64,000 bases of DNA from a virus. Below, piece after piece: positions 518 to 23,400 of the stretch; position 1 is the stretch's first letter, and every line of letters starts with the position of its first letter. The stretch spans positions 1-64,000 of IMG/VR virus record IMGVR_UViG_3300010885_023630, one strand, 5' to 3'. A model generated the notes under the pieces. The model worked only from the letters and a program-made list of their open reading frames with translations, did not search any database and was not told the DNA's origin. The translations under genes were made by a program, and so were the position numbers.

Positions 518-1711
518 TTACCATTCTTTATTTTCTATTAATATTTCACCAATTACTTCAAAAGTATCAGTAAAACTTTCGTTTCTGTATGCGTCTTTTT
601 CTCTTGTCCAAAACTTAAATTCTTCCCAGGGTGTTAATGTACTGTCTTTGCGATAGGTCTTAGGTTCAGTATACATTAAATTAATGATAGCATCAAATTT
701 TGAATTGTCAAAACTGCGTAAGTGCTTTTCTACAGTAGGTTTAATACTGTTGGGTAAAACATTTACACAATAGTACTGCGGCCATTGTACTAAAATAATA
801 AATGGCTCAACTCCATACGCTGTAAAATATTCAAACACATCATGTACATTCCATACGTTTAATGCGCTGACTGTAACAACAGGGACAACATTGATATTAT
901 TGCCGGGGTTCTTTAGTTTAAAGAACTCGTTAATGTTGTTCTGTGCGTCTAACCATTTACCAGGGTGGCGCATATATGTAAACTTGTTGTCTACTCCGTC
1001 TATGCTAACATTAATAATTACATTTTTAAAATTAGTTAAGATACGGCGCCATGTTTCCGACAATTCATGTGTGGCATTTGTACTTACGCTTAGGTCAATG
1101 TTCTTACTAAGTCCTGCGTCTACTAGACGTAACAGATACTTAGGAACTTGATCATCAAGGAATGGCTCTCCGCCATATAACTCAATGCGTTCTAAGTTTG
1201 TACTAAATTCAAACAGTTCATCTAACTGTACATCTGTAAAATGTTTTTTAAACTTCTCAATGGTATACGCTGTACGTGACAAGTTGTTTTTCTTTTCATA
1301 ATACTCGCCTTCAATATGATACAAATAACTATCTTTACTTTGACAAGTACGGCAACGTAAATTACAAATGTTACTTACTTTAATATTTAGATGTCTAGGA
1401 CCACTCATGTAATAATCCGGCTCAGCGTAGTCTAATCCAATGGGTACATCTTTGATCAAGTATTGCCGTTCGCTAGTAAAGCCAAGTTCTTCTTCGCTCC
1501 AGCACCGACGGCACATATCCAATTTCTCACCGTTGAGGCTACGCTGTCTAGCATCTGCTAATGTTGGATCTTGCCAAGTTAATTTAAATGTTTGATCTCC
1601 AAAATTAAACGCACCACCACCAAGGGCAGTACAAGGACTATACGATCCTGCTGGATCAATTGTAGCATCAAGGAAAAAAGCCGGACAAGTGTTTTTGTTA
1701 ATTTTGGGCAT
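518..1711 (-). CDS. Radical SAM protein (Twitch/SPASM-like N-terminus)
   Basis: CNLRCRTC motif, YGGEPF, STN, SIDG. Likely start MPKINKNTC at 1711, overlapping the end of the upstream gene. Confidence 0.85.
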   Translation of the reverse strand: MPKINKNTCPAFFLDATIDPAGSYSPCTALGGGAFNFGDQTFKLTWQDPTLADARQRSLNGEKLDMCRRCWSEEELGFTSERQYLIKDVPIGLDYAEPDYYMSGPRHLNIKVSNICNLRCRTCQSKDSYLYHIEGEYYEKKNNLSRTAYTIEKFKKHFTDVQLDELFEFSTNLERIELYGGEPFLDDQVPKYLLRLVDAGLSKNIDLSVSTNATHELSETWRRILTNFKNVIINVSIDGVDNKFTYMRHPGKWLDAQNNINEFFKLKNPGNNINVVPVVTVSALNVWNVHDVFEYFTAYGVEPFIILVQWPQYYCVNVLPNSIKPTVEKHLRSFDNSKFDAIINLMYTEPKTYRKDSTLTPWEEFKFWTREKDAYRNESFTDTFEVIGEILIENKEW

Positions 1712-3083
1712 GATATCTACATTCATTCCAGAACTCTTGCATTTCCGGAAAAGTTTCTTGAAAATTAGTGTGGCGACGTTTATCGTGTTCGTTAAAGAAT
1801 CGATAAAAGTCAGCACGTTGTAGTTTAACATAATCTGGGTCTAAGTTACGACCTTCTTTCATCCAATCTATATCTCGACGCATACGTTGTACTTCGTAGT
1901 CTTTAAAACCTTGAAATGGCTTGTCAGGGCTTTCTAGATTAAGCTCCATCCAGTCTGCTACACGTTCTAATACGCCAACATACACCGGAGGAAGTATTTG
2001 TAGGCTTTGCCATTTAGGTTGACGTAGCAATGGTGTATCAAACCAAACACGTTGGTATGTTGTGCTGTGCTGTCGGCGTAGATCTAGTATCCATTGCAAT
2101 TGTCGTTGAATACCTAGTACGCTTAAATTATTCATTGTAATAATAAATGTAAGACTATTACGATATGGAATTTCTGTTAAGAACCTGTTTACATATTCGT
2201 GTAGTCGATTCATGTCAAGGCCATTACGTATGTATTCAGCGTGTTTAATGTTACCAGAGTCTAAACTAACATATTGCATAAAATGTTCAATTTGTGTATT
2301 ACACAAATCTGACACGTACTTGATGTATTTGTTAAACAAAGCAGATTCTACGCTAAAGTTACTTGTAACATCTAAATGTAATTCAGGATTGGGTAATGCC
2401 AGCACATAGTCAAATACTCGATATGTATTTCTGTCCATCAGCGGCTCACCGCCGGTCATGCGGAAATGTTTTAGTTTTGGATATAAGGTAGGAAACCATT
2501 CCCAAAATGCGTCGACATACGGATTATCGTGGGAGTGAGGTATAGGCCTATTGCGACCAGTAAAATGGCTGGGATCGTTATGTACAGTACTGGTTGGGTA
2601 ACCGCCCCATTTATCCACCTCCTGCTGCCAGCTACTACTAAACTGAGGACTACAATAACTGCACTTGAGATTACATGCGTGATTAAAGTTAACTTCGACG
2701 TACGACGGAACAACGTCGTCTTCATTTCCGGTACTGGATCGTATAGTTTCATAACTGTCTGCCGCCCACGGCTCTCCTGATCTGTAATGTCTATCGCTTA
2801 GGTTGCCTAAGTCTTCTTGTGTCCAACAATAACTACATTCCTGTGGACGCTCATTCCGTAACATAATAACACGTTGAGCTTTTTTATGCTCTGTGTTATG
2901 TAATGCTCCGGGATTATCCTTTAATACACCAGCATCAATTTGGTGTAGCGGTGGATGGTAACAGCTATTATTTAACCCTGTGGGTAAATGTAAGCTGACC
3001 TGTTTCCATTTAGCTAAACATAATCCATGTCCCAGTTTTTCTTTCATCTGCTCTGCGGCAGACATAAAATCTGATTTACTCAC
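1698..3083 (-). CDS. Radical SAM protein (Twitch/SPASM-like N-terminus)
   Basis: CNLKCSYC, TGGEPL, N-terminal CLAKW..SCYHP..CSYCW. Start probably GTG 3083 or ATG 3065 rather than 3155. Confidence 0.85.
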   Translation of the reverse strand: MSKSDFMSAAEQMKEKLGHGLCLAKWKQVSLHLPTGLNNSCYHPPLHQIDAGVLKDNPGALHNTEHKKAQRVIMLRNERPQECSYCWTQEDLGNLSDRHYRSGEPWAADSYETIRSSTGNEDDVVPSYVEVNFNHACNLKCSYCSPQFSSSWQQEVDKWGGYPTSTVHNDPSHFTGRNRPIPHSHDNPYVDAFWEWFPTLYPKLKHFRMTGGEPLMDRNTYRVFDYVLALPNPELHLDVTSNFSVESALFNKYIKYVSDLCNTQIEHFMQYVSLDSGNIKHAEYIRNGLDMNRLHEYVNRFLTEIPYRNSLTFIITMNNLSVLGIQRQLQWILDLRRQHSTTYQRVWFDTPLLRQPKWQSLQILPPVYVGVLERVADWMELNLESPDKPFQGFKDYEVQRMRRDIDWMKEGRNLDPDYVKLQRADFYRFFNEHDKRRHTNFQETFPEMQEFWNECRYHAQN

Positions 3084-5120: not shown

Positions 5121-5922
5121 CCTCTACTAATTCTTTAAAATTATCACTGAGCAAATAATTTTTATCCATTATATGTATACACTGGTGCGGCACTACTATT
5201 GCCCGACTATCTTGTCGCACTTTTAAAAAATGTTCTGTGTACTCTATATTTGAAATTGGATCAGTTATAGTAAACAAATTCCAAGGTATGCCTTGTTCTT
5301 CGTTTAATGTGTATCCACTTAGGATGCTATTGGCTATGGCAAAGGCATAATCGTTTCTATAATTGCCTTCTCGTATGTTATACAAGGACCTATAGTATCC
5401 GTAGTTCCTTTGTATACGCCCAATTAAATTAAAAAATAATTCAGCACGTTCTGTTTTACGAAATAATACCACAGTGGCCCAAACATAAGGTAAACTAGTT
5501 TCGCCCATGGATTCGTAACTAGGGCCATCTGGTGTTGTATTATGATGTATTAACTTATAGTCAAAGTCTGTTTTAAATAGTTGTAATAAGCTATCATCTA
5601 ACACTACGTAATCTGTATCCAACAATATTGTTTCCTCATACGGACTTAGTTTGTATGCCAAGTATCTGCCAAAGTTACGCCAATTGATTTCTTCTAAACT
5701 ATTATCTAACCTAATAGTACCGCTTTGGTTATCAACTCTAATAATATGATCGTAATTGAATGTAGGTTGGCTATCGGGGTCTGTAATTAATGTAACAGGC
5801 AATCCTAATTTGTGTTTTATTAATTGGCTTGTGCGATCCGCTATACCAACATAATCAAATTTGGTATTAAAAGCAAATACTACAACACCCTTAGACTTTT
5901 CGGATTTTTTTGAGTTCGCCAT
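5104..5922 (-). CDS. Glycosyltransferase-like protein (GT8-like)
   Basis: SPYEETILLDTDYVV (DxD), WATVVLF, RNDYAFAIA. Confidence 0.6.
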   Translation of the reverse strand: MANSKKSEKSKGVVVFAFNTKFDYVGIADRTSQLIKHKLGLPVTLITDPDSQPTFNYDHIIRVDNQSGTIRLDNSLEEINWRNFGRYLAYKLSPYEETILLDTDYVVLDDSLLQLFKTDFDYKLIHHNTTPDGPSYESMGETSLPYVWATVVLFRKTERAELFFNLIGRIQRNYGYYRSLYNIREGNYRNDYAFAIANSILSGYTLNEEQGIPWNLFTITDPISNIEYTEHFLKVRQDSRAIVVPHQCIHIMDKNYLLSDNFKELVEVVCES

Positions 5923-6205
5923 GTTGTTGATGCCATCTGTTCATCACTTGTTGATAATGCTGTTGTGCCATTATTAAAAAAACTTGTTTGTCAACTGCAA
6001 TTGGATTTTGATAAACATCTTCCAAGTACAATTCATCAATGGGCCAGCTTTGTACAAATGCCAATAGTTCGGGCGTAACTTTAAACAGCCCGCCGCTGTG
6101 AGCAAAATGTAAATCGGTTTGAATCTTTTCTCGTAGAATACGCTTATTGACTTGATAGTCCGTAGCTAAACGTACTGCCTCAGCAAGTTTGTTAATTTCA
6201 GTCAT
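5891..6205 (-). CDS. Hypothetical protein (104 aa), first gene of the GT/radical SAM operon
   Basis: ORF directly downstream of a consensus sigma70 promoter. Confidence 0.75.
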   Translation of the reverse strand: MTEINKLAEAVRLATDYQVNKRILREKIQTDLHFAHSGGLFKVTPELLAFVQSWPIDELYLEDVYQNPIAVDKQVFLIMAQQHYQQVMNRWHQQHGELKKIRKV

Positions 6206-7254: not shown

Positions 7255-8982
7255 TTATGAATTTATCTTAACGATAGCTTCAATTAATTGTTCGCCTTCG
7301 TCTGTCTTGTTTACTAATGAACGTCCAATTACGTTCCACGGTGTGATTTCTGAGTGGTTGCCTGATCTGGCCAAGCCATTTCCGGCGCTTACTAATCGAT
7401 CACCTTTAGTAATTAACCCAACTGCTCTTACTGGCACACGACCGCTCATTGCGATTGGTGGATGTGTTTCGTTATTTCCGGCTGATGAGTTCATTAAGTA
7501 GGCTGCATTAGTACTTATGACGCCAAAAACTTTTTCGCTTAATTCAGCTACCACTTTGGTAATTTCGTTAACGCCGCCCATTTCTACTACTGTACCTGCT
7601 GGGTACTCAGCATCTGCGTGGAAGCGTTCTGCTAAGTCAGCGTATTGTGCGTGTACCGCTGTACCATAAATGTTGTTAAACCACTGTGTAGTGCTACCAA
7701 TATTTGCTGTTAAGTTAGCACTTGGCAAAATACTTGTTGTAACTGTTAGGTTACCTGTAGTAATATTACCACTTGGAATAACAATACTGTTGAATGTGCC
7801 TATTGTGCCACGAACATTACCTGCTGTTAAGCTACCTAGCTGGGCAGTATTACCATAAATTGTACCCCAATATGCGCCAGGTTGTCCTAAATTAATAACA
7901 GCGTTTGCCGCTGGAACTGCTACGTTACTAACTGTAACAGTTGTAAAGCCTCCTGTGGCTGGTATTGCGTTACCAACTGGTGTATTATTCAACGAACTAA
8001 ATGTAATTGTACCACCAATGGTAGCAATTTCAGCTCCGTTGTACGTTGCAAATCCTGATAAAGCAGTAATACCGTTGGTATTTAAATTTACAATGTTACC
8101 AATCGATGTAATATTTGGCTGAGCCGCAGTTAATATTGTTCCTGTGTAGCCCGATGTTGCTAAGAATCCAGCTCCTGTTACGCTACCAGCATTGATAATA
8201 GTAGCACTAACGTTACCAATTAAGTTACCATTAAATCCTGAACTAGCGTTGTATGATGTACCAGTGAATACTGTACCAGTTACAGCCGAACTAGTCAGAC
8301 TAGCTACAGCGATACCACCGGAACTGTCTCTTTGTACTAGTGTGTTTGGACTAGCGGCAGTATCTTGTGAACTCAATGCCAACGACGGGCTTGCTGTTGT
8401 GCTAAAGTTTAATCCGGCTTTAATAACAGAGAAACCAGCTAAAGCTGACGCAAAAATCTCTTTGGAAAAGATTGCGTAGATGATACCGTTGATAATAAAC
8501 TGGATAACAATGTGATTACCACCCGACGTATCTGTCATAATTGCCGGAACAGATCCAGTATTACCTGTAGCTGGGGTAGCCTGTGGGCCAATTGTAACCC
8601 AACTTGTACCAGAGTATACTTTTAATTGGCTATTTGTTGTATCAAACCATAAGTCGCCACCAAGTGTACTTAAATCGCCAGGTGGGCTTGAATACGGACT
8701 GGATGTAGCACCAGTTGAAATTTTCCAGCTGGAGCCAGAATATACTTTTAAAATGTTATTTGTTGTGTCCCACCATAGCTGACCTTTTAATGGGTTAGCT
8801 GGGCTAGTATTGTTAGCAAAATTCTCTAACAAATATATGAAGTTTTCGTTTAAGAAAGTACCATAATTAGCATAGTTTTTACCAATTAACGTTAGACTAG
8901 TATGTGTGTTATCATAGTTACCGTCAGACAGTCCCCCTACAATTAAGGGTTGTCCGTTAGTTAGGTTAAGATTATACGCCAT
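7255..8982 (-). CDS. Tail fibre/spike protein with C-terminal intramolecular-chaperone (peptidase G2/IMC-like) domain
   Basis: N-terminal LIGKNYANYG..NENF..LLENFA module shared with 9024 and 14828; beta-rich middle; C-terminal AQYADLAERF..PAGTVV..GRVPV..KGDRLVS. Confidence 0.7.
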   Translation of the reverse strand: MAYNLNLTNGQPLIVGGLSDGNYDNTHTSLTLIGKNYANYGTFLNENFIYLLENFANNTSPANPLKGQLWWDTTNNILKVYSGSSWKISTGATSSPYSSPPGDLSTLGGDLWFDTTNSQLKVYSGTSWVTIGPQATPATGNTGSVPAIMTDTSGGNHIVIQFIINGIIYAIFSKEIFASALAGFSVIKAGLNFSTTASPSLALSSQDTAASPNTLVQRDSSGGIAVASLTSSAVTGTVFTGTSYNASSGFNGNLIGNVSATIINAGSVTGAGFLATSGYTGTILTAAQPNITSIGNIVNLNTNGITALSGFATYNGAEIATIGGTITFSSLNNTPVGNAIPATGGFTTVTVSNVAVPAANAVINLGQPGAYWGTIYGNTAQLGSLTAGNVRGTIGTFNSIVIPSGNITTGNLTVTTSILPSANLTANIGSTTQWFNNIYGTAVHAQYADLAERFHADAEYPAGTVVEMGGVNEITKVVAELSEKVFGVISTNAAYLMNSSAGNNETHPPIAMSGRVPVRAVGLITKGDRLVSAGNGLARSGNHSEITPWNVIGRSLVNKTDEGEQLIEAIVKINS

Positions 8983-9023: not shown

Positions 9024-11039
9024 TTAGTACATTTTCTGAATATAACAAAGGGCATAGTACGGCGGACGATTTTCGTGTGGTTGCCCGCCACCTGTTGTTC
9101 CTGTTGTATCAGATATATTCATACTGTGAATGTGATTGCTTGCGGCTACTACACTGGTAGATACGCCGATTCCGGTTGTTGACGCATTAATAGTTGCTCC
9201 GCCCCAGCCAGTTGCTACAGTATACGGTCCTGTGTATGCCGCGCCGGCTGTAGTAATAACAGAGCCATTTGTTCCGTGTGAGTGTCCCGAATCAGCCACA
9301 GTTGATGTTGCTGAGTGAGTGTGTGTTCCACCAGGATTAGTATTAGCAACAATGGTTATTGGATGGATATGCGGAGGAAGTTGCGTTGTACTTAAAGTTA
9401 CATTGTTGTTTCCGCCTGTTGCTCCAACGGTGTAACTTGATCCTGCGCCAACAATAAATTTATCAGTTAAATTTGGGGTTCCGTTACTGCCATCACATAA
9501 TTGCCAGCCTGTAGGAATAGTATTAGTGGTATTATTCCACATCCAAATAACACCTGCCGGTACTACGCTTTGTACAAAAGCTGTAGTGGCTACGTTGGCA
9601 GTATTGTCGTTGTATGGTTGTGTTGTTGCAACTGTTTGTGTTAACGATACTCTACTGATATTTCCGCCTGTGATAACAGCGGTAGTAATATTAGCAGTAG
9701 TAATATTGGCAACTGTGGCTGCGATTGTTGGAGTAGTAATTTGTGTTGCTGTAATAGATACGCCAGACAGTTGACCAGCTGTTATAACAGCATTGGCTGA
9801 GCTAAAATTATTAATAACTCCCAATGTAGCGTATACATTCGAAAGGTTTGTTAGGTAGCCACCGGCTATTGCTACATTACCTGAGCTAAAATTTGTAGCA
9901 ACTTCTGTTGTAACTGTTGAGTTAGTGATATTACTATTACCAGCTGTGATATTTGCTACACGACTAATATAACCGCCTGAAATAACCGCGTTACCTGTAT
10001 TTAAATTGCCAAGTTGAACCGAATCGGCAGTTAGTCGGGATACATTTAATGTACCACCTGACACTAAAATGTTACTAGAGCTGATGTTATTAAAGTAGGC
10101 TTCTTGAGCATAAACACCAGAAACAGATTTAATAAAGCCGCCTGTAATTGCCACGTTACCTGTTTGTAAATTGGTAGTGGTTAAATTAGTAATTGCAGCA
10201 TTAATGCTTGTTAAATTACCGTTGACATTACCAGTTACGCTACCGACGAATGATGCGTCAGTGCCGGTAGTACCACTATCTAATATTTTAATTCCATTAG
10301 CATATATGTCTCCATAATATGCTGTATCATTTAGTCCAGTGCCAACTTGTAGTACTCGGGTTACGCCGTCTTTGGTATAAACATCACCTAATAAACTTCC
10401 TGCTACATTACCCAATAGGTTAGAATTTAACCTTGTGCCATTGTTAGCAATATTACTGTTTAATGTTAAACCCGGATAAATGGTACTGAATCCGTCCATT
10501 GCCGGACTTGGTAAGAAAGGACCGTCGGCACTAAAAGTACCGTAGGTTACATTGCCAAATTGTATTTTAAATATTCTATGTGTTAAACTTGAGGTAGAGC
10601 CGTCACCCACAGTAGTCGGAAGTAATCCGCTAACACCTTGCTCGCGTGTGTACTGTGGTCCAATAAATTCCCATTTGCTGTTATTATATAGATAAATTTG
10701 GTTGGTACTGGTATTAAACCACATGTCGCCGTCTTTTGCAGCAATAGGCTGTGTACCGGAATTTGTTACCCCTGACACAGGCACATATCCTGCGTCCGAT
10801 GTAAACACTTTTAAAATCTTATTAAACTTGTCAAACCACAACTGACCTTCGGTGTTTGTGCCAACTGGTGCTGTGTTGGCTGCAAAGTTTTCTAATAGAT
10901 ATAATAAATTCTCATTAAGATAACGTCCGTATCCAACGTAGTTAGGCCCAGGCAACTTCAAACTGGTTGAGGTATCTAAAAAACCATCACTGATTGTGGT
11001 TTGTACTGTTCCGTCACTTTTGTATATTGTATACGACAT
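9024..11039 (-). CDS. Tail fibre protein with C-terminal tail-collar domain
   Basis: Shared N-terminal NENLLYLLENFA module; repeated (N/S)GNxxITGG beta repeats; VPAGVIWMW..IPTGWQLCDGSNGTPNLTDKFIVGAG..HENRPPYYALCYIQK collar signature. Confidence 0.8.
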   Translation of the reverse strand: MSYTIYKSDGTVQTTISDGFLDTSTSLKLPGPNYVGYGRYLNENLLYLLENFAANTAPVGTNTEGQLWFDKFNKILKVFTSDAGYVPVSGVTNSGTQPIAAKDGDMWFNTSTNQIYLYNNSKWEFIGPQYTREQGVSGLLPTTVGDGSTSSLTHRIFKIQFGNVTYGTFSADGPFLPSPAMDGFSTIYPGLTLNSNIANNGTRLNSNLLGNVAGSLLGDVYTKDGVTRVLQVGTGLNDTAYYGDIYANGIKILDSGTTGTDASFVGSVTGNVNGNLTSINAAITNLTTTNLQTGNVAITGGFIKSVSGVYAQEAYFNNISSSNILVSGGTLNVSRLTADSVQLGNLNTGNAVISGGYISRVANITAGNSNITNSTVTTEVATNFSSGNVAIAGGYLTNLSNVYATLGVINNFSSANAVITAGQLSGVSITATQITTPTIAATVANITTANITTAVITGGNISRVSLTQTVATTQPYNDNTANVATTAFVQSVVPAGVIWMWNNTTNTIPTGWQLCDGSNGTPNLTDKFIVGAGSSYTVGATGGNNNVTLSTTQLPPHIHPITIVANTNPGGTHTHSATSTVADSGHSHGTNGSVITTAGAAYTGPYTVATGWGGATINASTTGIGVSTSVVAASNHIHSMNISDTTGTTGGGQPHENRPPYYALCYIQKMY

Positions 11040-11083
11040 ATTTTTATTCTCTTTATACTATACTTATCTAAAACTACCAATAA

Positions 11084-11287
11084 TTACTGTGCGCTGGTCC
11101 ATGCGGCATAACATTCCCCTAGCACTGAGCACTCGTGCCCGCCGTGTAGAATGTAATTAATTAAGGGAATATTAGGAAGTATTTTGCTAAAAATGTCAAT
11201 ATTTTCTGTCAAAATAGCAAACAGAGCCTCTTGCTCTTCTTTGGTTAATGCGTTAACTGTATTAGTTAATTGATCTGCTGTATACAT
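11084..11287 (-). CDS. Small protein, partner of KIICT module copy B (paralog of 12159..12368)
   Basis: LTKEEQEALFAIL..NIDIFSKILPNIPLINYILHGG aligns with LTEEQQARLFTIV..NAELFNKVMPNMPLIQLILTGG. Start ATG 11287. Confidence 0.75.
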   Translation of the reverse strand: MYTADQLTNTVNALTKEEQEALFAILTENIDIFSKILPNIPLINYILHGGHECSVLGECYAAWTSAQ

Positions 11288-12146
11288 GTTCTTTCTTTCC
11301 TTCAAATAATCTTCCCAGCTCTGCTACTATTTTAAACATAATAAAAATAGCAATTAGACCCAGGCCTTTAATAAATCCAGCTGGCTTTTTACTTGGGCCA
11401 AATATTCTTTGCCAGACGCCCACTGCTTTACAAATAGGAATGCCTGCGGTTGTAATCCAACGCCCAGTTAAACTACCGGTACTGTGTTTGCCCATCTTAA
11501 ATGCCATTTCTTCTGCCCAGGGCGTAGCAATATCAACTGCCCAACCAATGGACCAACGTTTTGCAGCTACACTAAATTCTTCGTCCGACATCCATGGCAT
11601 CATTTTTGGGCCACTGCCACTCATCCAATCCACTACTATTTCAGCCCACGCACGGTAACCGTTATAGATGTCTGGGCGAATCTTAACTAATTCCGCACCA
11701 AATGCTTGGTCTGCTAGATATATTTCTTCGCTCATTAGCCCTAGTTCGTATAACTTGGTACAGATAATCTTACCTCCACCTCCACCGCCTGCGGACCCGG
11801 TAGGGCCACTGGTAGGAATTACTGCCGGCACTGGTTGCCCAACTGACGCTGGCATTTGACTTGGCAGATCTACTTCATCCCCCCATACAAATGCTATTAT
11901 CCCGTCGCCGCCGGCTCCACCTGCCCAGTTTAAAGGATCTGTACGGTCTGGGCTACTTGCGCCACCGCCACCGGAAGCAACACCACCGGGGGTACCTGTA
12001 GGAGCTCCGGCGCTACTTGTTCCGCCTAGCCCAAATGGACTGTTGCCACCAGCGCCACCGTAGTTAGTAGAGCCGTCATTGTTACCGTCACTGCCTGCGG
12101 CTCCTGCTTCTCCGTTCGGGGTTCCACCTGCTCCACCACCTGCCAT
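11262..12146 (-). CDS. Glycine-rich protein (apparent second half of a Gly-rich domain) with C-terminal poly-Gly-KIICT-TM module
   Basis: Strong RBS (ACAGGAGAGAAAC-ATG); starts MAGGGAGGTPNG; ends GGGGGGKIICTKLY...hydrophobic helix...GKK. Confidence 0.85.
   Translation of the reverse strand: MAGGGAGGTPNGEAGAAGSDGNNDGSTNYGGAGGNSPFGLGGTSSAGAPTGTPGGVASGGGGASSPDRTDPLNWAGGAGGDGIIAFVWGDEVDLPSQMPASVGQPVPAVIPTSGPTGSAGGGGGGKIICTKLYELGLMSEEIYLADQAFGAELVKIRPDIYNGYRAWAEIVVDWMSGSGPKMMPWMSDEEFSVAAKRWSIGWAVDIATPWAEEMAFKMGKHSTGSLTGRWITTAGIPICKAVGVWQRIFGPSKKPAGFIKGLGLIAIFIMFKIVAELGRLFEGKKEHVYSRSIN
11300..11790. repeat. Direct repeat copy B (about 0.5 kb) encoding the KIICT module
   Basis: Matches about 12385-12875 at an offset of 1085 nt; 11365-11449 is identical to 12450-12534. 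Confidence 0.9.
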
Positions 12147-12158
12147 GTTTCTCTCCTG

Positions 12159-12368
12159 TTACTCGTTGGGTTTAACTGAATTGTAAATATCCACAATAGG
12201 ATGAACTACATCAGTTGAACCGCCAGTTAAAATAAGTTGTATTAAGGGCATGTTTGGCATTACCTTATTAAACAATTCAGCATTGTTATGTACTATTGTA
12301 AATAGCCTTGCCTGTTGTTCTTCGGTTAGCCCGTCGATTGCCCTATTTAATGTGCTTATGCTGTGCAT
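12159..12368 (-). CDS. Small protein, partner of KIICT module copy A (paralog of 11084..11287)
   Basis: Overlaps the 3' end of 12356..14824; clear similarity to the 11084 ORF. Confidence 0.75.
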   Translation of the reverse strand: MHSISTLNRAIDGLTEEQQARLFTIVHNNAELFNKVMPNMPLIQLILTGGSTDVVHPIVDIYNSVKPNE

Positions 12369-14824
12369 TTTGTTTCCTTTTTGCCTTCAATTAATCTTCC
12401 AAGTTCAGCAACACCTTTGAACATAATAAAAATACCAATTAAAGATAGCCCTTTAATAAATCCAGCTGGCTTTTTACTTGGGCCAAATATTCTTTGCCAG
12501 ACGCCCACTGCTTTACAAATAGGAATGCCTGCGGCAGTGATCATACAACCAGTTAAACTACCCTCAGACTTTTTGCCCATTTTAAAAGCCATTTCTTCTG
12601 CCCACGGAGTAGCAATATCTTGGGCCCAGCTTATTGACCACTTCTTAGCGGCAACGCTAAATTCTTCGTCCGACATCCATGGCATCATTTTTGGGCCACT
12701 GCCACTCATCCAGTCCACTACTATTTCAGCCCAAGCTCTATATCCGTTATAGATGTCTGGGCGTATTTGAACAAGCTGTGCCCCAAATGCTTGGTCTGCT
12801 AGATATATTTCTTTGCTCATTAGCCCTAGTTCGTATAACTTGGTACAGATAATCTTACCTCCACCTCCGCCTCCACTATCGCTACTAGCTCCGCCAGCGC
12901 CACCATCGCCACCAGTGGCTATTAATGCGCCTTTAATTCCACTTAGTGATGTTGTTCCACCGCCGGCCCCAGCTGGAGCATTGGTAGTTCTTCCCACATA
13001 AGGTGCGCCATCGCCACCTTTACCAACTTGTATTGTTAAAACTTCAAGAGGCACAACCGGGAACGATTGGTTCAATTGATAACCACCGCCACCTCCTCCT
13101 CCGCCTGCAGAGCCCACACCAACTTCTTCACCGCCACCACCGCCACCACCGGCTCCGCCAATATCAACGGTTAAATTATAAATTCCCGGGGGTACAGTAA
13201 ACGTAAATGAGCCAGACTGGTCTGCCAGATAAAAACCTGAGCTTGGGAAGAATTTTTCCCACTTGCCGTTTTGATGGTAAAAGCCTTTGAGCAAAGGTGA
13301 ATAAGTACCACCGTGGTTTGTTACTGCCTTATGACTAATACTACTATCTTCTCTAAATTTATATTTGCTATATATAGACAATAATAAAACTGTTTCTGTT
13401 CCGGTTAATGCGGATATGTTTGTGTCAGCAGATTGGACAGTTGATAAAACATAACGAGGTAATGTAAATGGCCCAGTATATACAGCTTTTCGTACAATTC
13501 GTAGACTTGTCATATACATTTGTGTAAATTTAGTTTTTGTTCTATCAGTGCCAATATACATTACAGTATCTGTGGTAGGAGCAAAGCCATATGCTGTATT
13601 GGACGCAGTTGATGAATCCAATGCTCCATTTACATACCAATAAAGTGTACCACCCTGACGAACTAAAGCTACATGTTTCCATGTATTCATATTAAATGTA
13701 GTCTGCGTAGTTAATTGTGCTACCGCATGAGTTCCAGATCGACCTTCAAACATGAGTTTAGCAGTAGCAAGACTCCATTTAATTCTCCATCCGCCGGCTA
13801 ATGCTTGCCCGTCAGTAAAATCAATTACACCCGCGTCTGCTTGAAATCCCAGTGGGTTAAAATAAAACTCTATAGTAAAATCATCTGGATTAAGTCCAGT
13901 TGCAAAATCAGCACTATACGGTGTAGTTAAATATGCCGTGGCTCCGTTAAAGGACATACTGGCATTGCCCACTGGCATTGTATCTGTTGTTGTTGGTTTA
14001 TTATTATAGGTAAAATTAACAGAGCCAAACGCTGTTTCGTGTGTGGTTATTGGTACTTTAAATGCGCTTGAATCTGTAAGCCAAGTATCTGCTGTATGCG
14101 AGTTTAACAATAATCTTGTCTTGGATCCATCTAAAGCAATAACGTTGTAGGCGTTTGGTTGTACTGTTTTTAATGGCATTGCTGGAACAGTAAAAGGTCC
14201 AGTGTATACCGGAGTACCGACTGTAACTCGATAGTTACAAACGTTTCCTAAAAACTGAGAACCATTAAGGTTCGCTTGACTTTGACCAATACGTATTATG
14301 GAGTCGCCAGAAATATCTTTTGAATTTTGTAATGTGGCTGTTTCAGCAATGCCGTTAATGTACATTGTAATAATGCCATTGTAGCGTACTACTGCCAGGT
14401 GTGTCCATGTTTCGTACTGTATGTTTGAGTAGCTGTTAAATACGCCACCGTTACCAGTAACAACTGATACTTTTTGTAAAGCACTAGATCTGTTTAAGGC
14501 AATTTCAAAAAAATCTTCTGACTGTATATAGGAATCTAAGTTAGAAAAAAGTGTTTGACCAACGTTAGTAGTTTGTTTTAGCCAGTACCAAGTTTCAATA
14601 CAGAAATCATCTGTGCCAAGCATTATAGAACCATGCGGTGCTGTTAAGTACCCGCCGCTGAATTCGATGCTTCCGTTGGTGCTGATTGTAGGCACGTGTC
14701 CATCATATGAAACACTACCGCCGGAATTAATGTAAGGGGAATTAACTGGGTGCCAGCCGGTTCCCTTAGGTCCCGGGCCAAAGTCCGGGCGTTTGATCCA
14801 TATTGCTCTATCTACTGTTGACAT
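12356..14824 (-). CDS. Receptor-binding-like protein: two LamG/ConA-like domains, first half of a Gly-rich domain, C-terminal KIICT-TM module
   Basis: Two DDF(C/T)IExx...WxH(L/V)AxVRxxGxxxxY(I/V)NG...R repeats (LamG-like); FTVPPGIYNLTVDIGGAGGGGG Gly-rich start; GGGGGGKIICT C-terminal module. Confidence 0.8.
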   Translation of the reverse strand: MSTVDRAIWIKRPDFGPGPKGTGWHPVNSPYINSGGSVSYDGHVPTISTNGSIEFSGGYLTAPHGSIMLGTDDFCIETWYWLKQTTNVGQTLFSNLDSYIQSEDFFEIALNRSSALQKVSVVTGNGGVFNSYSNIQYETWTHLAVVRYNGIITMYINGIAETATLQNSKDISGDSIIRIGQSQANLNGSQFLGNVCNYRVTVGTPVYTGPFTVPAMPLKTVQPNAYNVIALDGSKTRLLLNSHTADTWLTDSSAFKVPITTHETAFGSVNFTYNNKPTTTDTMPVGNASMSFNGATAYLTTPYSADFATGLNPDDFTIEFYFNPLGFQADAGVIDFTDGQALAGGWRIKWSLATAKLMFEGRSGTHAVAQLTTQTTFNMNTWKHVALVRQGGTLYWYVNGALDSSTASNTAYGFAPTTDTVMYIGTDRTKTKFTQMYMTSLRIVRKAVYTGPFTLPRYVLSTVQSADTNISALTGTETVLLLSIYSKYKFREDSSISHKAVTNHGGTYSPLLKGFYHQNGKWEKFFPSSGFYLADQSGSFTFTVPPGIYNLTVDIGGAGGGGGGGEEVGVGSAGGGGGGGGYQLNQSFPVVPLEVLTIQVGKGGDGAPYVGRTTNAPAGAGGGTTSLSGIKGALIATGGDGGAGGASSDSGGGGGGKIICTKLYELGLMSKEIYLADQAFGAQLVQIRPDIYNGYRAWAEIVVDWMSGSGPKMMPWMSDEEFSVAAKKWSISWAQDIATPWAEEMAFKMGKKSEGSLTGCMITAAGIPICKAVGVWQRIFGPSKKPAGFIKGLSLIGIFIMFKGVAELGRLIEGKKETKCTA
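12385..12875. repeat. Direct repeat copy A (about 0.5 kb) encoding the KIICT module
   Basis: Matches about 11300-11790, with identical blocks separated by patches of mostly synonymous change. Confidence 0.9.
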
Positions 14825-14827
14825 CTA

Positions 14828-16717
14828 TTAACCTATCACAAACCAGAAGTCGCCATCGTCTCCTCCGGTCGGTTGGCTAGTAGATACCACGTACTTACTG
14901 CCCATCCAAGTTGCCCGAGAGCTTGTTATCTCCGATTGTACATACTGTGTGGTTGCTATTTTTTGACTATTATCGGCACTAGCCGGAGTTGGCGCAGTCG
15001 GAACCCCAGTGAATACCGGAGTATCTTTTGGGGCCAACGGTGCTACTGCTACAGCTAACGCATTTTCTAATACACTTTTTATATTAGTTATTTTAGCATT
15101 ATAATCTGTGTATAATAAATTAGCAGTTGTGTCAACATACATGGTTGTTGATATTGTGCCGCTATAATCGCCAATGCCTCTGTAGGCAATGTCTGGGCCG
15201 AGATATGCTATTTTTTCAATCCAGACAGCAGGTTGTATCAGTTGTCCATTTATTTCAATCAAACTGGACTGGAATGGTTGTATGCCTGTTGTTATACTAC
15301 CACTGGTTATTGTAACATTAACAACGTTACCTCTTACATTTGCATCATGTACTTGTAAATTTGCCAAGGTAACTAATGTATGAGAATCAAGTTGGCTAAT
15401 GATGTCGCCGTATTTAACGCCAATGTTATCGCTTAAAGATATTTGGTACGGATTTAATCCGGGCCCAAGACTTCTAAAATACGTTAAAAGTTTTTCTACA
15501 GGAGGTACAACTGGATTTCCAGTGAACGTTGGGCTGTTGATATTTGCCTTGGTAGCTGTTATGTTGCTTAGTGTTCCAATGTTGCCTGTAAGAACACCTA
15601 AGTTAGAATTAATTATACCAACGTTTGATAAAAACGCTGTATTAAGATTATTTACAGTACTATTAATTCCATTGACAGCTTGGTTTAAGTTTGCGTTGGT
15701 TGCGTTAACTACCACAACAATGTTTGATTGATAATCAATTAAAACTTGATCAACGTCTGCTTTAATTTGCCCTTCAAGTTCTTGTATATAATCTACAGTA
15801 GCATTAACTGTTTGATCTACATAGCCTTTATTAGCAATATCTGCGTCGGCTACAGGACTGTGAGCGACTCTAGCAATTCCGGTTGCGCCATTGATGTTTA
15901 ATGCTCGCTGATTGCCTACATATAGATCAATATTACCACCGCGAGTATTCTTTACAAGTAAATTATTATTGTTAACAAAAACGTTTGCGGTATTATTACC
16001 GATTACAATGTTTCCGTTAAAGAAATTATTCTGGTTAAATTGATTATCTATATCAAGTCTTGAGAAGACGTTGGCATATAAACTACCAACACGAATACTG
16101 TTATTTGCTGTACCATTTAAGATTGATACATTAGATAAATTTATTCCCCGACGTAAAATAACTTCAAATCCCGGAATAGGGCTCTGCGGGATAAATTCAT
16201 TGCCGCAAGTAATAGATACTAAAGCATTACTAACGTAGTTATTAATAACAGTTTGAACGTTGCCAAAGTTGTCGGTAATTGATTCTACTATGGCACCTGT
16301 TTTGCCCTGTGTTGTTGAATATGCTGGCCCAATTAATAACCATTCAGTACCCGACCATACACTCAATTGATTATTGTTGGTATTCCACCATTGGTCGCCA
16401 ATTCTTGTGGTTGTTGGCGCTGTACTCGAAACAGCACGTTGACTTACTGCTACAAACGATGAACCATTGAAAACTTTTAATAACTGGTTACCGGTGTCCC
16501 ACCATAGTGTTCCAATAATTGGATTAAATCCAACACTTTGCCCTGGCGGTATTGGTGCTGCAAAATTTTCCAATAAACGTACAAAGTTTTCATTTTGTAT
16601 TTCGCCGTAGCTGGTAAAGTTACGCCCGATTAAGGTAAGACCTGTATCGGTGTTTGTTGTTCCGTCTAGTAGTGTTGCTAGAACGTTGCCATCAGTTTTA
16701 TTAACAATGTAACTCAT
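14828..16717 (-). CDS. Tail fibre-like structural protein
   Basis: Shared N-terminal LTLIGRNFTSYG..NENFVRLLENFA module, coiled-coil middle, (S/T)PxFTGxPxxP and KIATTQYV fibre motifs. Confidence 0.7.
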   Translation of the reverse strand: MSYIVNKTDGNVLATLLDGTTNTDTGLTLIGRNFTSYGEIQNENFVRLLENFAAPIPPGQSVGFNPIIGTLWWDTGNQLLKVFNGSSFVAVSQRAVSSTAPTTTRIGDQWWNTNNNQLSVWSGTEWLLIGPAYSTTQGKTGAIVESITDNFGNVQTVINNYVSNALVSITCGNEFIPQSPIPGFEVILRRGINLSNVSILNGTANNSIRVGSLYANVFSRLDIDNQFNQNNFFNGNIVIGNNTANVFVNNNNLLVKNTRGGNIDLYVGNQRALNINGATGIARVAHSPVADADIANKGYVDQTVNATVDYIQELEGQIKADVDQVLIDYQSNIVVVVNATNANLNQAVNGINSTVNNLNTAFLSNVGIINSNLGVLTGNIGTLSNITATKANINSPTFTGNPVVPPVEKLLTYFRSLGPGLNPYQISLSDNIGVKYGDIISQLDSHTLVTLANLQVHDANVRGNVVNVTITSGSITTGIQPFQSSLIEINGQLIQPAVWIEKIAYLGPDIAYRGIGDYSGTISTTMYVDTTANLLYTDYNAKITNIKSVLENALAVAVAPLAPKDTPVFTGVPTAPTPASADNSQKIATTQYVQSEITSSRATWMGSKYVVSTSQPTGGDDGDFWFVIG

Positions 16718-17418: not shown

Positions 17419-20400
17419 TCATGGCGTATACCCTCTACTTGCTAATAGGAATCTTGCTTGATCGGTGGTGCTATTAATTAAGCCGTAGCCGTTGCTTGGA
17501 CGACCATACGCTGAGCTATACCAAACTTTTGTTTTTTCCAGTATCGATTTAGCAGGAATTTGTTTTGTCCCGGCCCCAGTTAAGAACTGTGAATTTGCGT
17601 ATTCTGGGATTCCGCGGAAGTTTCCGAGTATAAAGGCGTTTAATACATAACTCTGGGAATTGATGCCCTGAATAAAAAGTGTTCCTGTTGTGTTATCAAA
17701 TCCTTCAACGTCAAATCCGTTTGGTCCATCAAACACTTCTGGTAAACTAGCCACGGATCCTGTTAATAGTATAACTGCCAATGACTTAGAATTTACAACA
17801 GATTCTAGGACACGCATAGTTAATGTAACAGTAGTACCGGTAGTATCATATTGTGTAACAATGTCTCCAATGTTTGCTGTAATTCCTTTGGTCAACTGTA
17901 GTCCGTAACTAACACTATTAGTTATTGTAAAATTAGTATCGTGTACTAATTCTTCTGTATTAATGCCCGTGCCCGGTACTTGTTGCTGTACGCTTGAATC
18001 AACAACACGAGTACCAGACAAATATACGTCCGATGCTATTGCTGTTCCGTCAACACCGCGACGCAATTGACCAAGACTGTTTCTGTTAATAGTAGTTACA
18101 TTGGCAACAATATTAGCAAAATAACGACTGAATACGTTACCTGTTGTCAAGTAAACATTGCTGTTATAAGATAACAATGTTTGTGTTGGGTATACTACGT
18201 TAGCCACCCACGGTGTAGGCATTTCTAACGCATAGTTTCTGTAATAAACAATTTTTTCACCATTAATAAACACTACACCGGGAATACCAAGTGTTCTATT
18301 TGGCAATGGTAATACAGTGGCATCAGCAACTTGAATATTAGAATCTGTTAAACGTAATGGTGATGTTAATACTGTTGTATTTGCACTAGTGACACGATAA
18401 AACGTTTTGTCCTGATTCATATTATCAAACACTCTAAATGCCAAATTGTTTGTATCAAATACTGTCATATTCAAGGTATCGTACATACGTCCAGGAATTA
18501 ATTCTTCCGGAGCATAAGTCACAACATTGTCAAAATACTCGCCGCCAAGTACACCAATGTCACTTGGGTCAACACCAAAGTCGGTGCTGTAATTACTTGT
18601 AACAATGGCGTCAAACGTACCAGTTACAAAACTATTACCTTCTAATAGATGCGGTCTTTCAATTCCTCTTTGTGTTGCTGCCAAGTTTACATTACCGCTA
18701 TATGATGCGATACGATCGTTAGCATTACTAAATTCTTTTGTTGATATCGAATGTACGTTAGACACCGGCAATGCTAGATTAGCAGGAATAGTATAGTTAC
18801 TGGTAATTTGAAGCATACTAGTATCGTTTAACACAATAACAGAGTTAAGCGGTAATATATCGCCCACGTTAACTGATGTAATATTACTCCAAAATACAAA
18901 TGTGTTTGAAGTAGTGTACGTAGTACGGTCAAATTTCATATTAGTTTTAATACTTCTAACTAAATTATGACCTTTGTTGTTGTTGTCAAATACGTTCTTT
19001 AGTAACGCCCTGCCAATAGCACCTGTGCCCATACCTCTAAACTCTATTGTTGGGGGTACTGTGTATCCCAAGCCCGGGTTTGTAATTATTACTCGGCTTA
19101 CTCCGCCCTTGCCATCAACTATAGCATATCCTGCGGCACCTGTGCCATCGCCGCCGCGTATGATAACATCAGGCGCAGTTTTAAATCCTGTGCCGGGGTT
19201 TTCAACTTCGACGTCAACAACAGAATATTTGTAGTTTGCGTACCATTGGCTATTGACTCCTGATTGCCATTTAGCAATATCGTACGGTTGTGTTCCTGTT
19301 GGGCTACGGTAAACATTTAAATTACCTTCCCAGTATGGCGGAATATCAAAGTCTGTGATGTCGCTGTCGTACGTGTCGTTGCCAATGTAGTTAACAACAT
19401 ACTCACGAAGTGTAGTGCGATATGGCTTAACTTCATTGATATAATCTAAATAATAATTTTGGTTGTCCGCAACATAACTTGAAAATTGTTCAAGTTTTCT
19501 AATGTATTGTTTAGCACTTAAGAAACTTGTTTTAAACGCCCACTCAATGTTTTGTTGTTCGGTTAAAGCGTACTTGATCATTGAGAAGAATACACGATTA
19601 TAATCATTGGCCAAATCATCTATTAATACTTCATTTTGTATAGCAGTTAATATTTGACGCAATTCTGTAGCAGGAATTGGTGTAGTGTTGATCTGTATAG
19701 TTCCATTCTCTATACCAACTAAGTTTAATTCTAAATTGTCATCAATATAATAGACCTCAAAGCCCCTGTTGCCAGCGTTTAATACTTTGATGTGTGTTCT
19801 GGGTACTAATTTTTGTTTTCCTAGCTCTAGTGTATTGTTTACAATTACGTCAGGAACGTTTGTAGAATTATAACTAGAATCATACCAATCGGTGTAACTC
19901 CAATATAAACTAGTCTTAAACGACTGTGCTCTAACAAGAGTAAATACGCCTACACTATTGTTTATGTTGGTCAATTGATAAATTGCCCATTTATTATTTT
20001 GTGTAATATCGTCGGTTACAAGAACATTAGTAGACCCAACTGTTAACATTGTTGGGTCAAGATAATATAACTCATCAACTGTTGATACTGAAAGATCATA
20101 CGCACCAGAATTTGCAGCTGGGATCGATTCGTTACTTTTTAATGTAGTTAATACCTTACGTGCTACAATTGGGTATGCCAATAGTATTGGATTGATAATG
20201 CTTAGGTAATTGTCCAACGCCTGCTGAGCGTAAACAAACATAGTTTGTCTTGGGCTCCCTTTAATAAGACCAGCTATACCGTATTTTTGGCTAACTGGTA
20301 AATTAACGTCCGGTACTTGATTCCCAGCGCGGTCAACTCCCGACAGGCTATCAATGAATTTATTAAGAATAGCGGCAGGTATTCCGCTGTCTGGGTTGCC

Positions 20401-23400
20401 CTCTTGTACTAGAGCATATTCACTATGTACCTCTCCGGCATCAACGGTGCGACTACCAATGTGCAATACTGTATTAGTTCCCGATAAAAGAGAACCAACA
20501 TTCTGTAATGTTATTGTAGTCGATGACAATATAGTAGCATAAGGAATACCCTGACTTTGCGGACTACTAATAATATTAGTAATACTGATTACGCTATTTT
20601 CTTTTCCGTCTGCAACTATATCAAGGCCTTTGACCCAGTAATAATACTTAACTTTAACATTTCCAATAGTATCTACATAACCATATGTAGAATATGCGCT
20701 GTCGTCTTCGTGTAATGGTGTTCCGCGATTTCCAGAATCTTTATATTTGCTTGGTAATACTGTACTTTCTGTCCACTGGTATACATCAATACTTGACCCC
20801 GGGAATTGTTCTCCCCAGTGATTTAATCTATAAATTAAACTGTCTTGTTCGTAGTCAATATAACGAACTGTATCTAAGTTCCACCATATTTGACCAACTT
20901 GTCTAGGACCCCAGGCCATTTCAGCATGTAATTGTACCGTTCCGTTACTGTATAATGCTGGATCTTTAGTAGTTTTAAAATCAATATCCTTGTCGGCGGT
21001 ATTTAATATTTTGCCTTTATTAGGATCAACAAAATCTAGAGCCGCTAATATGTTATTAGTATTTTTATTATACATAAACGTACGACTAACATTGTTAATA
21101 TCAACTTTCAGCAACTGGCTTCTTGTTAATGTCCATACTGTTGACCCACGAGGATTTTTAAATATGTGCGCCGACTTTCCGCCAGGCGAACCTAACACAA
21201 TCACGTTACGAGTAACGTCTATAGACGAACCAAATCTATCCCATGAATGTACTTGTGTTTCCAAGTCCTGTACGTAGGTGTAAATTCCTGCTGTATTGCT
21301 TACTTGATCAATCTGTGGTTCAAATATGTACGCGGCCCCAGCATTGATAATCTTATCAACAAATAATGTTAATCCACTGTCGATAACTGTTTCTGTGCCA
21401 AATTGGTCAAACGTAGTTGGTTCTTTGCTTGGAGCGCCTTCTGCCCCAATAGCCAATACTTTAGCATCGGCAGACACACTAATTGTTGAACCAAATGCGC
21501 CGCCTTGACGATCAGGGTGAATCAATGCTTCATTAAATGCGTAATATCCATTTGTTAATGTGTAGCGTTCTACTAGACCGTTTTGTGCTCCGCTGGCTAT
21601 TGACCCCGGAATACCAATGAACAAGTTTCCGCCAGTGCCGTCAATGTCCAAGTCAGCACCAAAATGGGAGTATTTGTTTTTTTGCTGGCTGTATAGTACA
21701 TTACCTTGTGTAATTACATTGGCATTGGCCGATCTCGTGTATACATAAGCAAGACCGTTCTGTGTCACTGTGTCATCGGCTTCGGGAGCAGATATGAAAA
21801 CAGTTGTACCATTGGCGTTAGTTTTAACTACATTACCAAACGACGTTGTGCCAACATTGCTACAGGTTTGTACATAAACATTATTTTTAAATTGATACGT
21901 AGTTACTCGATTATTGCCGCCGACATATAACCAATTGGTATCTGCGCTTAAGGCAATGCTTGTTACACGGCTAAATGTATTTGTTTGTAACTGTGTAATT
22001 GCGCCATTAACGTGTCGGTAAACATGAATATGATTTTCCGATCCAACAACAAGAACGTTGCCCTTTGATTCAATTACTGATCCAAATTTTGGTTTTGCGT
22101 TGGGGTCGGTAATTGTAACATTGGCCTGATAATTTCCGCCAACGTTAGCAAATATTTGTACTTGTGCGGCACCCGGATTACCAACATAAATGTATTGGCT
22201 ATTGCTACTGATGCGTGTGCTTGTGCCAAATTTACTATTGGCTGTTATTGTGTTTGCTGTAATTTTTACTGCGGCATTGCTCAACCAGGGCTTACGGAAC
22301 GTGTATACTCCCCAACCGTTGGGGGTGGCGTTATTTACCCACACTCGATCCCCGTCAATCCAGTCTGTTTGCGGAGTAATTGAATCAATTTCTGATAGGC
22401 TATCAATGACCATTGGTCCAAGACTATACACTATGCCCTGAGATTTAATCGGGCTTGCTCCAATTAAATAACGTAACTTAGTAAACTCACCAGTAATTCT
22501 AATTGTTACCTGTGTAGAATTTACCACGCGAATAACTTTATATAATCCGTTATAGTCATTAAATGGCGATTGAAACTGCCCAAGTATAAATAAATCTCCC
22601 TCGTTGAACGGATGACGATAATCAAATGTTATTGTAGCAAGGTCGTCTAAAGAATAAGATAACGTTGTTGCTGTTAATCCAGTCTCATTGACACGGAATA
22701 CATTCCAGTGGTTGTTGCCATCTTTTGTTGTCCAAATTCTGTGACCTCTACCAACATTAAGAATTGTTTCTGGTGTAGTAGTGGTAATATCAAATATTTG
22801 TGTTTCTACATCGTCGACGTTTACATAACCAGCATTGGGTAAATCGCCGGGGTAATCGCTGTCTGTTCTATTTTGATACAAACTTGTTATAGTAAAGTCA
22901 TTGGCGTTATAGATGTTTCCACCGGACACACCAACAATAACATTGGAATTATTATATGTTTCAGTTAAATTTAATGTTAACGGGGTATTAATAAATTCAC
23001 TTTGATTTAAAATAAATTCAACAAATTGATTGTTGCTTAAATCTCCGTAACGCCCGACCTGGAACGCCCACTCCTCGTATGTGTCAATGTTACCTTGTAC
23101 GTTATCAAACGATCCTTTAGTTAATGCGTTAATAGCATTGATTGTACCTTTTTGTTTAATGTAACCTTGATAGAATTTTGTTTGGTTTGGGATCGTAATT
23201 CCCAAATTGCTTAGATACGGGCGTTGGCGGAAGCCTATTAGTCCCGAGCTGAATAACTGTAAATCTTCTTCGGCAGGAGGACTATCTACGTCGTAGAATT
23301 GTAAGAATTTTTGTGCGTTGTGTCCAAGACTCGGTAATAGTCCTTGTTTTATATTTTCTGCTGGTATCAGCGTCCATTTACCAAGATCAAAAGTAGTTGC

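Follow-up and report, generated by a model that had tools for sequence, protein, structure and literature searches.

According to the published report (PMC9608196), domains of the Pam3 gp24 type consist of a TNF-like beta-sandwich and stacked Gly-rich strands; these strands form loops on top of the sandwich, two per loop, whose hypervariable distal ends bind the receptor. The same text likens gp24 to gp38 of Salmonella phage S16 (PDB 6F45). In Aeromonas phage Aeh1, according to another study (Crona et al. 2010, PMC3045599), insertion of mobE splits the nrdA gene, the two products reassemble without RNA or protein splicing, and insert sequences persist as terminal extensions. Here, we analyzed two neighboring genes, A and B, in a 64,000-nucleotide stretch of viral DNA (referred to as the window), which is the first 64 kb of the 126,980-base IMG/VR virus record IMGVR_UViG_3300010885_023630 (CheckV completeness rating of 36%). 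Our results support the conclusion that the Gly-rich parts of A and B are two halves of one domain, which is broken at a fixed position, and each gene ends in a conserved C-terminal module, which we call KIICT.

Pam3 gp24 (PDB 7YPX) and the “tail wing brush gp33” of PDB 9D93 are like A and B in having related Gly-rich sequence, as found with a profile of the Gly-rich part of A, and in the location of their genes among tail-fibre genes. However, these proteins are single chains, whereas A and B are two genes with a predicted 160-residue helical domain hanging from the break; S16 gp38 enters this comparison via the Pam3 paper only. As in Aeh1, a gene of a T4-like phage has been fragmented into two by an insertion, with reassembly of A and B being predicted by a model. 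Unlike mobE, the insert in A and B (two small genes, S1 and S2, and the modules) had no nuclease family match in Pfam, PHROGs or NCBIfam. Furthermore, it brings a large, conserved and widely shared domain, and the position of the break is shared by many phages that differ in the module they carry, which is unlike the Aeh1 case.

The Gly-rich halves of genes A and B

All features of the A/B stretch described below lie on the minus strand, where A and B sit within a run of fibre genes, as judged from the open reading frame (ORF) list and PHROG matches. Gene A (12356..14824; 822 amino acids, aa) encodes an N-terminal fibre-type region and two LamG-type regions, followed by the first Gly-rich half, a poly-Gly linker and a KIICT module. 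It matched Laminin_G_3 (2.7e-31) and Gly_rich_2 (2.1e-08) in Pfam and tail, baseplate and fibre families in PHROG. The Gly_rich_2 match (PF21722) lies on residues 537-656 of A (G1; 12857..13216), which end in an ASSDS-GGGGGG linker, and scored 34.9 bits against a cut-off of 24.3; it accounted for profile positions 3-111 of 226 only, i.e., the A polypeptide does not cover the whole profile. Gene B (11262..12146 in the ORF list; 294 aa) starts 12 bases past the stop codon of S1, and an AGGAGA ribosome-binding site (12152..12157) is located 5 nucleotides (nt) before its ATG at 12146. Its residues 1-92 (G2; 11871..12146) form the second Gly-rich half, ending in a closing beta-strand, as assigned by alignment to a contiguous relative, by the G2 family alignment and by co-folding. 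A Pro-rich linker and a poly-Gly run of six Gly, read from the translation (residues 93-125; 11772..11870), link G2 to the KIICT module of B. Gene B alone gave no Pfam match even at E<=10.

We fetched 62 syntenic viral loci by using an alignment (A2) of the downstream tail-fibre gene (9024..11039; 671 aa; PHROG tail fibre and tail collar fibre) as the synteny anchor, and built G1 and G2 profiles from the window and from relatives. L-numbers below denote retrieved loci and P-numbers denote homologous proteins. In one relative, L059, the corresponding position upstream of the homologous fibre is taken by a 399-aa ORF, which matched G1 and then G2 in one chain and covered positions 2-225 of the 226 in the Gly_rich_2 profile of Pfam. 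A and B aligned collinearly to this ORF, residues 503-637 of A to its residues 164-298 (46% identity, E 3e-22) and residues 10-75 of B to its residues 317-386 (41% identity, E 1e-3), and the start of B coincided exactly with the start of the next Gly-rich strand in L059.

The break recurs at the same position. Among relatives, we found seven distinct first-half proteins with a module at the end (L006, L042, L045, L053, L056, L057 and L076); in six of the seven an ORF matching the G2 profile follows, and in L056 a Gly-rich ORF without a G2 match. Among the split relatives tested, the Gly_rich_2 match stopped at profile position 113 for L006 and at 111 for L045, as compared with 111 for A. B-type proteins were also present in three further clusters at 70-97% identity. 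When the G1 profile (alignment A4) was compared with PDB sequences, it matched 9d93_Qa (E 2.9e-8) and, weakly, 7ypx_A of Pam3 (E 0.011) and 7yfw_a (E 0.052); the G2 profile matched no PDB sequence. Searches for further second-half relatives found one viral locus with a single sequence, three viral loci with alignment A5 and none in a metagenome scan, all of which are probably limited by low-complexity filtering.

We then modeled the A half (residues 513-656) in complex with the B half (residues 1-100), using alignments of natural relatives for both chains, along with three control partners. The interface score (interaction prediction score from aligned errors, ipSAE) was 0.80, 0.82 and 0.81 in three runs, versus 0.00 for the best of the three controls; of 80 solved complexes, 58 attain the mark for this score, as do 2 of 110 mismatched pairs, counts that are only rough with custom alignments. 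The runs had at least 91% of contacts in common, with approximately 400 contacts and a predicted local distance difference test (pLDDT) value of 75-78 for the partner, while pLDDT of the A half was 79-80 with B versus 38-43 with unrelated partners. The last strand of B (residues 82-87) was predicted to lie antiparallel to the first long strand of A (residues 39-46, numbered from A513), and the end of the A half (residues 124-134 in the same numbering) to contact B residues 1-21. This model is what one interdigitated domain would be expected to give.

A preliminary description of the window had laid out this anatomy (a split Gly-rich stretch, two poly-Gly-KIICT modules, a ribosome-binding site and small paralogous genes), and all of it was present on the minus strand. 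Its proposal that the Gly-rich parts are halves of one domain was borne out by the half coverage of the Pfam profile in A, the contiguous coverage in L059, the collinear alignment and the predicted co-folding (ipSAE 0.81). The contiguous homologue that it had suggested looking for is L059. As to the computable observations that it had named as telling against it, neither was made: we found no complete domain in each Gly-rich part, and the Cys of the module was conserved.

The A/B arrangement is not an assembly artefact, because contigs of three public DNA runs from three studies span every join, i.e., module to small gene, small gene to B, B to module and Gly-rich half to module. One contig in run X3 joins 11268 to 12839, skipping 1570 bases, with 24 letters on one side, and is probably a repeat artefact between the two modules. 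In a metatranscriptome run, RNA-library contigs lay over G1, S1 and G2 and the rest of the stretch was partly uncovered. These contigs are weak evidence for transcription of the three elements, because DNA can occur in such libraries; the uncovered parts are no evidence of silence. Splicing of an intron across the insert was also considered and rejected, as an Rfam search (E<=1, over 10500-15500) gave no intron and a sole, chance match to a small nucleolar RNA (18.5 bits).

The window contains T4-type genes for the portal, major head protein, baseplate wedge and hub, and an SbcC-like nuclease, and the public runs that contain the stretch are labeled freshwater, lake water or just metagenome; the phage is a large freshwater phage. 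A distant blastn search of 11000-15000 against the GenBank phage collection gave no match.

The KIICT module family and its small partner genes

Module copy 1 (12359..12856; A residues 657-822, with the stop codon at 12356-12358) was identified by its identity to copy 2 and by a match in the phage's own record (E 3e-98), and copy 2 (11265..11771; B residues 126-294, with the stop codon at 11262-11264) by the alignment of the copies, the family search and a structural model. The two copies are identical at 146 of 161 residues (91%) and 415 of 483 nt. Codon changes between them are synonymous in 36 cases and non-synonymous in 15, and identity is perfect over two patches of 45 nt. In both copies, a Cys lies three residues past the Gly linker, and a hydrophobic stretch is followed by GKK at the end.

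A HMMER search with the module recovered 732 representative clusters (50% identity) at E<=0.001, 40 of them at E<=1e-30, in proteins of 69-1859 aa; the cluster names were all “hypothetical protein”. Throughout the family the module was C-terminal, and the match ended at a median of 5 residues before the protein C-terminus. AlphaFold2 (AF2) predicted six helices and no strands over approximately 160 residues, with a pLDDT of 93.5 and a predicted TM-score (pTM) of 0.84. The Cys that the preliminary description had singled out is the fourth residue of the module, inside predicted helix 1, and it was invariant in 250 of 250 aligned members, with D21, G38, Y39, W42, P84 and W85 being almost invariant. 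Approximately 120 folded helical residues separate this Cys from the hydrophobic helix in the AF2 model. The last helix was present in 229 of the 263 members aligned from the module start and absent in 34. A 19-residue Kyte-Doolittle mean of at least 1.6 was found in 205 of the 229 tailed members, and 188 of the 229 were net positive past that stretch, while a hydrophobic N-terminus was found in 7 of 279 members.

The module matched no family in Pfam, PHROGs or NCBIfam, and only one PDB sequence (E 0.19). Foldseek found nothing in PDB at E<=0.001, and the matches were confined to uncharacterized proteins resembling the module's own family in BFVD and to unnamed viral clusters in the ESM Atlas. 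A wide VIA structural search ranked the NEL (IpaH/SspH/SlrP) E3-ligase domains first, with Z scores of 6.2 (root-mean-square deviation 3.3, 107 residues aligned) and 6.1 against 4.4 for the next unrelated row; the module Cys fell at the very start of the aligned range. Both NEL scores lie in the noise range for helical bundles, and we took this likeness as a noise-level lead. A likeness to pore formers was dropped, as Bcl-2-family rows were low in the Foldseek list (E 2-5) and none appeared in the VIA list.

The family is large and almost only viral. Two scans of 185,579 species genomes gave one cellular locus, on a 7.2-kb contig of a metagenome-assembled genome, and a tblastn search of the GenBank phage collection gave one record, Synechococcus phage SynMITS9220M01, at 36% identity. 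In this phage, the only cultured one found, the gene (L117; MT408532.1 25317-27167) encodes a 616-aa hypothetical protein, follows an annotated “fiber protein” and is itself followed by a 113-aa gene. We found no printed description of the KIICT module in the literature searched (supplementary files not covered).

Across 50 viral loci there were 44 unique module genes, with the module following a poly-Gly run in 18 and an Asn-Cys ladder, in otherwise non-Gly proteins, in 23. A Gly-rich ORF was among the next ORFs in 9 of the 18 poly-Gly cases. The 23 Asn-Cys ladder genes (L008-L013, L016-L025, L028, L030, L033, L035-L041 and L049) are followed by two S-type paralogues, with a CxxxCxxC-motif ORF a few kb downstream. 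The proteins that carry KIICT are very different (150-1859 aa), and the module itself is 70-85% conserved between phages with differing carriers.

The small gene S1 (12159..12368; 69 aa) has a start that overlaps the end of A by 13 nt, and S2 (11084..11287; 67 aa) overlaps the end of B; both were taken from the ORF list, their mutual alignment and the sequence. The mechanical ORF of S2 begins at a TTG at 11305, and its alignment with S1 begins at the ATG at 11287, from which we count the gene. The two proteins are identical at 21 of 50 residues (E 3e-15), and a homologue of this S family was found directly downstream of 33 of the 44 unique module genes. The AF2 model of S1 has five short helices (pLDDT 82.7), its best VIA match (Z 3.8) was uninformative, and its sequence is not that of a membrane protein. 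No S gene separates the module gene from the second half in L045, where the latter directly follows the former. S is not needed for the split as such, and a role of the small gene as a necessary part of it was not supported.

In L006, L042 and L053, a different gene of 103-140 aa occupies the S position. This type of intervening gene, of 103-147 aa overall, lies between the halves at L076:5270-5683, L057:4774-5214, L056:4954-5364, L006:4507-4926 and L042:6167-6577, with a shorter form at L053:3688-3999. The long forms have an N-terminal Cys/His cluster, and this type of gene matched no Pfam family.

Other end-modules and recombination at the break

A second module of approximately 121 aa, CCVIS, was found at the same break of the Gly-rich domain. 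It comes after poly-Gly, has two Cys at its start and a hydrophobic stretch plus basic residues at its end, and is located at L057:4442-4804 and 5581-5955, L076:4911-5267, L056:4586-4951 and L006:5314-5682. Comparison of KIICT and CCVIS with hhalign gave a probability of 1%, i.e., no profile similarity. Syntenic loci exchange modules: L006 carries KIICT on the first half and CCVIS on the second half, L057 carries CCVIS on both halves, making it an exact analogue of the window, and in L053, L045 and L076 the second half has no module of its own. The B-type protein of L057, which carries a CCVIS module, also has a linker comparable to that of B.

Gene conversion also occurs between the two KIICT copies: in P0001, a B homologue of 97% identity, 9 of 15 module-diagnostic sites are of the A type and form one central block. 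The poly-Gly linker of B varies in length, with one Gly codon fewer at window position 11773 in run X1 and in P0001, the closest homologue. The adhesin slot varies greatly between relatives, and in a tree of the flanking fibre N-terminus, which need not reflect the adhesin's own history, split and contiguous loci were intermixed.

A third end-piece was found in the 1051-aa protein of L099 (L099:7186-10338) and 57 further proteins at E<=0.001 (P0280-P0336), 56 of them 49-75% identical. These Gly_rich_2 fibre proteins consist of the adhesin, a Gly run ending in Cys, a Hint-like domain and a helical, basic-ended tail of approximately 100 residues, and downstream of L099 there is an S-type gene. 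Assignment to Hint is weak, with a Pfam Hint match at E 0.006, below the cut-off, and PDB sequence matches at 0.018-0.9, some of them to intein and hedgehog chains; three homologues have a precomputed hit to PF05203 (Hom_end_hint), and the terminal blocks of the domain look to the eye like what we take to be typical Hint blocks. The hhalign probability of homology between KIICT and this Hint-plus-tail family was 0.8%. All three end-module types have a Cys within four residues of the Gly run.

Elsewhere in the window, a 575-aa fibre protein (7255-8982) weakly resembled Peptidase_G2, a cleavage domain of intramolecular chaperones, at an E of 4e-4 that does not reach the cut-off, and on this basis the phage may also use a self-cleaving fibre end-piece of a known kind. 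A single 3806-aa ORF lies at 17419-28839, between the baseplate and fibre genes, and a radical-SAM-type gene was recognized by PHROG at 518..1831.

Assembly of the domain and alternative explanations

We consider it probable that A and B are two polypeptides that jointly form a single glycine-rich receptor-binding domain without being covalently joined. The domain would be of the Pam3 gp24 kind, and its place would probably be at the tip of the fibre encoded just upstream (14828..16717; 629 aa), which matched PHROG tail-fibre families and lies in the same gene order in L053, L006 and L045. It would be broken at a turn between two antiparallel Gly-rich strands, presumably at the distal, receptor-facing end, and the break would hold a recombining cassette of poly-Gly codons, the KIICT module, a stop codon, the coupled small gene, a ribosome-binding site and an ATG. 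The stop codon would belong to the cassette because the module must be the C-terminal end, which in most members is a strongly hydrophobic helix plus basic residues and resembles a tail anchor. After translation, the halves would interdigitate non-covalently, with the last strand of B pairing with the first strand of A, and the module would stay tethered to the break point by its Gly linker; no covalent chemistry would be needed for these steps. B would have gained its second module on a long Pro-rich linker, with the copies kept alike by gene conversion. Judging from its position, its tail and its analogues, the module may be a membrane-binding or assembly end-piece, which the small protein might shield or partner.

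Several points weigh against this account. The assignment of G2 rests on one alignment at E 1e-3, a G2 profile made from loci found here and the co-fold model, and the co-fold may pass by likeness to the solved single-chain Gly-rich domains of Pam3 (7YPX) and 9D93; being a model, it is silent on events in the cell. The proposed distal position of the break comes from strand order and the contact list of the model and not from coordinates. Only hydrophobicity suggests membrane anchoring, the last helix is part of a confidently predicted bundle in the AF2 model, and 34 of the 263 members are without this helix. The invariant Cys near the Gly linker plays no part in a two-chain account. Finally, the Hint-like domain that follows the same poly-Gly-Cys junction in relatives hints that end-pieces may be removed, although it does not show self-removal by KIICT, which has a different fold.

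Such removal is the essence of an explanation that we regard as unlikely, though not negligible, in which the module has a transient part in assembly, where it holds or chaperones the adhesin, perhaps together with the small protein and at the membrane; a cut at or near the poly-Gly/Cys junction, made by the module's own Cys or by a protease, would then remove it, with the halves staying unjoined. It would fit the invariance of the Cys, the fact that all three end-module types are Cys-led after a Gly run, and the Hint-like domain of the L099 family, which lies exactly at the junction with an S-type gene downstream. In addition, two reports describe fibre chaperones and C-terminal intramolecular chaperones that are absent from the mature fibre (Pam3 gp25, PMC9608196; Alteromonas phage fibres, PMC10579305), which are like A and B in that the far end of a fibre protein is associated with a helical element and with a small gene downstream. 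The L099 family resembles these caps, as a self-cleaving-type domain precedes its tail. KIICT, in contrast, has no sequence or fold match to them and has a hydrophobic, basic C-terminus. Hint and bacterial intein-like autoprocessing domains share with KIICT a Cys soon after a Gly run, at the start of a C-terminal appendage; however, KIICT is predicted to be all-helical, has no Hint motifs and matched no Hint or peptidase family in Pfam or NCBIfam, and its Cys, instead of being the first residue, is located within helix 1, three residues past the linker. Equally high conservation would also be expected of a permanent functional domain. We hold it to be decidedly unlikely that KIICT, CCVIS and Hint plus tail are instead interchangeable membrane-active modules of the fibre tip, with the small genes as immunity-like protectors, comparable to those of bacterial polymorphic toxin systems, and that the split is a side effect of placing a C-terminal effector on an adhesin loop. 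Toxin domains follow a Hint-like domain in polymorphic toxins, an architecture to which the tail after the Hint-like domain can be likened. Three mutually unrelated C-terminal modules do occupy the same slot, a coupled small gene is mostly present (S type in 33 of 44, plus the 103-147 aa type), the modules end in a hydrophobic hairpin plus basic tail, and KIICT occurs on very different carriers. On the other hand, KIICT is conserved across those carriers, unlike diversifying toxin tips, no toxin or immunity family was matched in Pfam or NCBIfam, no pore former appeared in the ranking of the wide VIA search, the sequence of the small protein is not that of a membrane protein, and there is no obvious benefit in damaging the membrane of a cell that is to be infected. 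Less probable still is a unifying conjecture in which the three end-pieces would be three solutions to one task, the release of a membrane-tethered adhesin precursor by Cys-based acyl-shift chemistry. KIICT would then be a new self-processing fold that possibly transfers A, through its C-terminal Gly, to the N-terminus of B, and the small protein would keep the module inactive until assembly.

The preliminary description had suggested possible ligation, with the module Cys activating the C-terminus of A and passing it to the N-terminus of B, so that the domain is rebuilt as a single chain and the module is released. This we consider very improbable. The invariant Cys, the predicted contact between the end of the A half and B residues 1-21, and the exact start of B at the next Gly-rich strand of L059 are compatible with it, and Met-Ala, Met-Pro and Met-Ser starts should lose their Met according to the specificity of methionine aminopeptidase. 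Beyond the Cys and the closeness of the two termini, nothing specific speaks for it. However, KIICT has no known ligase or Hint fold, the model is all-helical, and the NEL likeness lies within noise. The oligo-Gly acceptor that had been envisaged is not seen, since B-type proteins have Ala, Pro or Ser in second position, the next residues vary, and Gly or Cys is never at the start. The module of B would itself be left without an acceptor, many relatives have a second half with no module at all, which argues against any need for the second module, and the co-fold requires no covalent link. Nor did the related notion of a sorting or cleavage tag fare better. C-terminal sorting signals of the CFI-box-CTERM, GlyGly-CTERM and LPXTG types are short tripartite tails consisting of a motif, a membrane helix and a basic cluster, whereas KIICT is a confidently predicted six-helix domain of 160 residues, with the long folded segment noted above between its Cys and its hydrophobic helix, and it matched no sorting-signal model in NCBIfam or Pfam. 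We find it just as improbable that the adhesin gene was simply broken by the cassette and is decaying, with only the module, or nothing, being functional. The insert does end the reading frame, and the adhesin slot is highly variable between relatives, but the ORFs and start codons of both halves are intact and a strong ribosome-binding site is retained, seven distinct relatives show this break together with an intact second half, B-type proteins persist in the three further clusters, and synonymous differences outnumber non-synonymous ones between the module copies.

Receptor-binding domains decide which hosts a phage can infect. Assembly of A and B as two polypeptides would mean that an adhesin domain is routinely made of two gene products, split at one fixed loop, and that recombination can open the break, close it or fit it with different end-pieces. 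The locus would thus be a natural example of split-domain complementation in a phage adhesin, and the break would mark a site that tolerates large cargo and may be useful for fibre engineering. KIICT, in turn, represents a large, almost purely viral domain family without a Pfam, NCBIfam or PDB entry, characterized by an invariant Cys, an end that resembles a tail anchor and a dedicated small partner.

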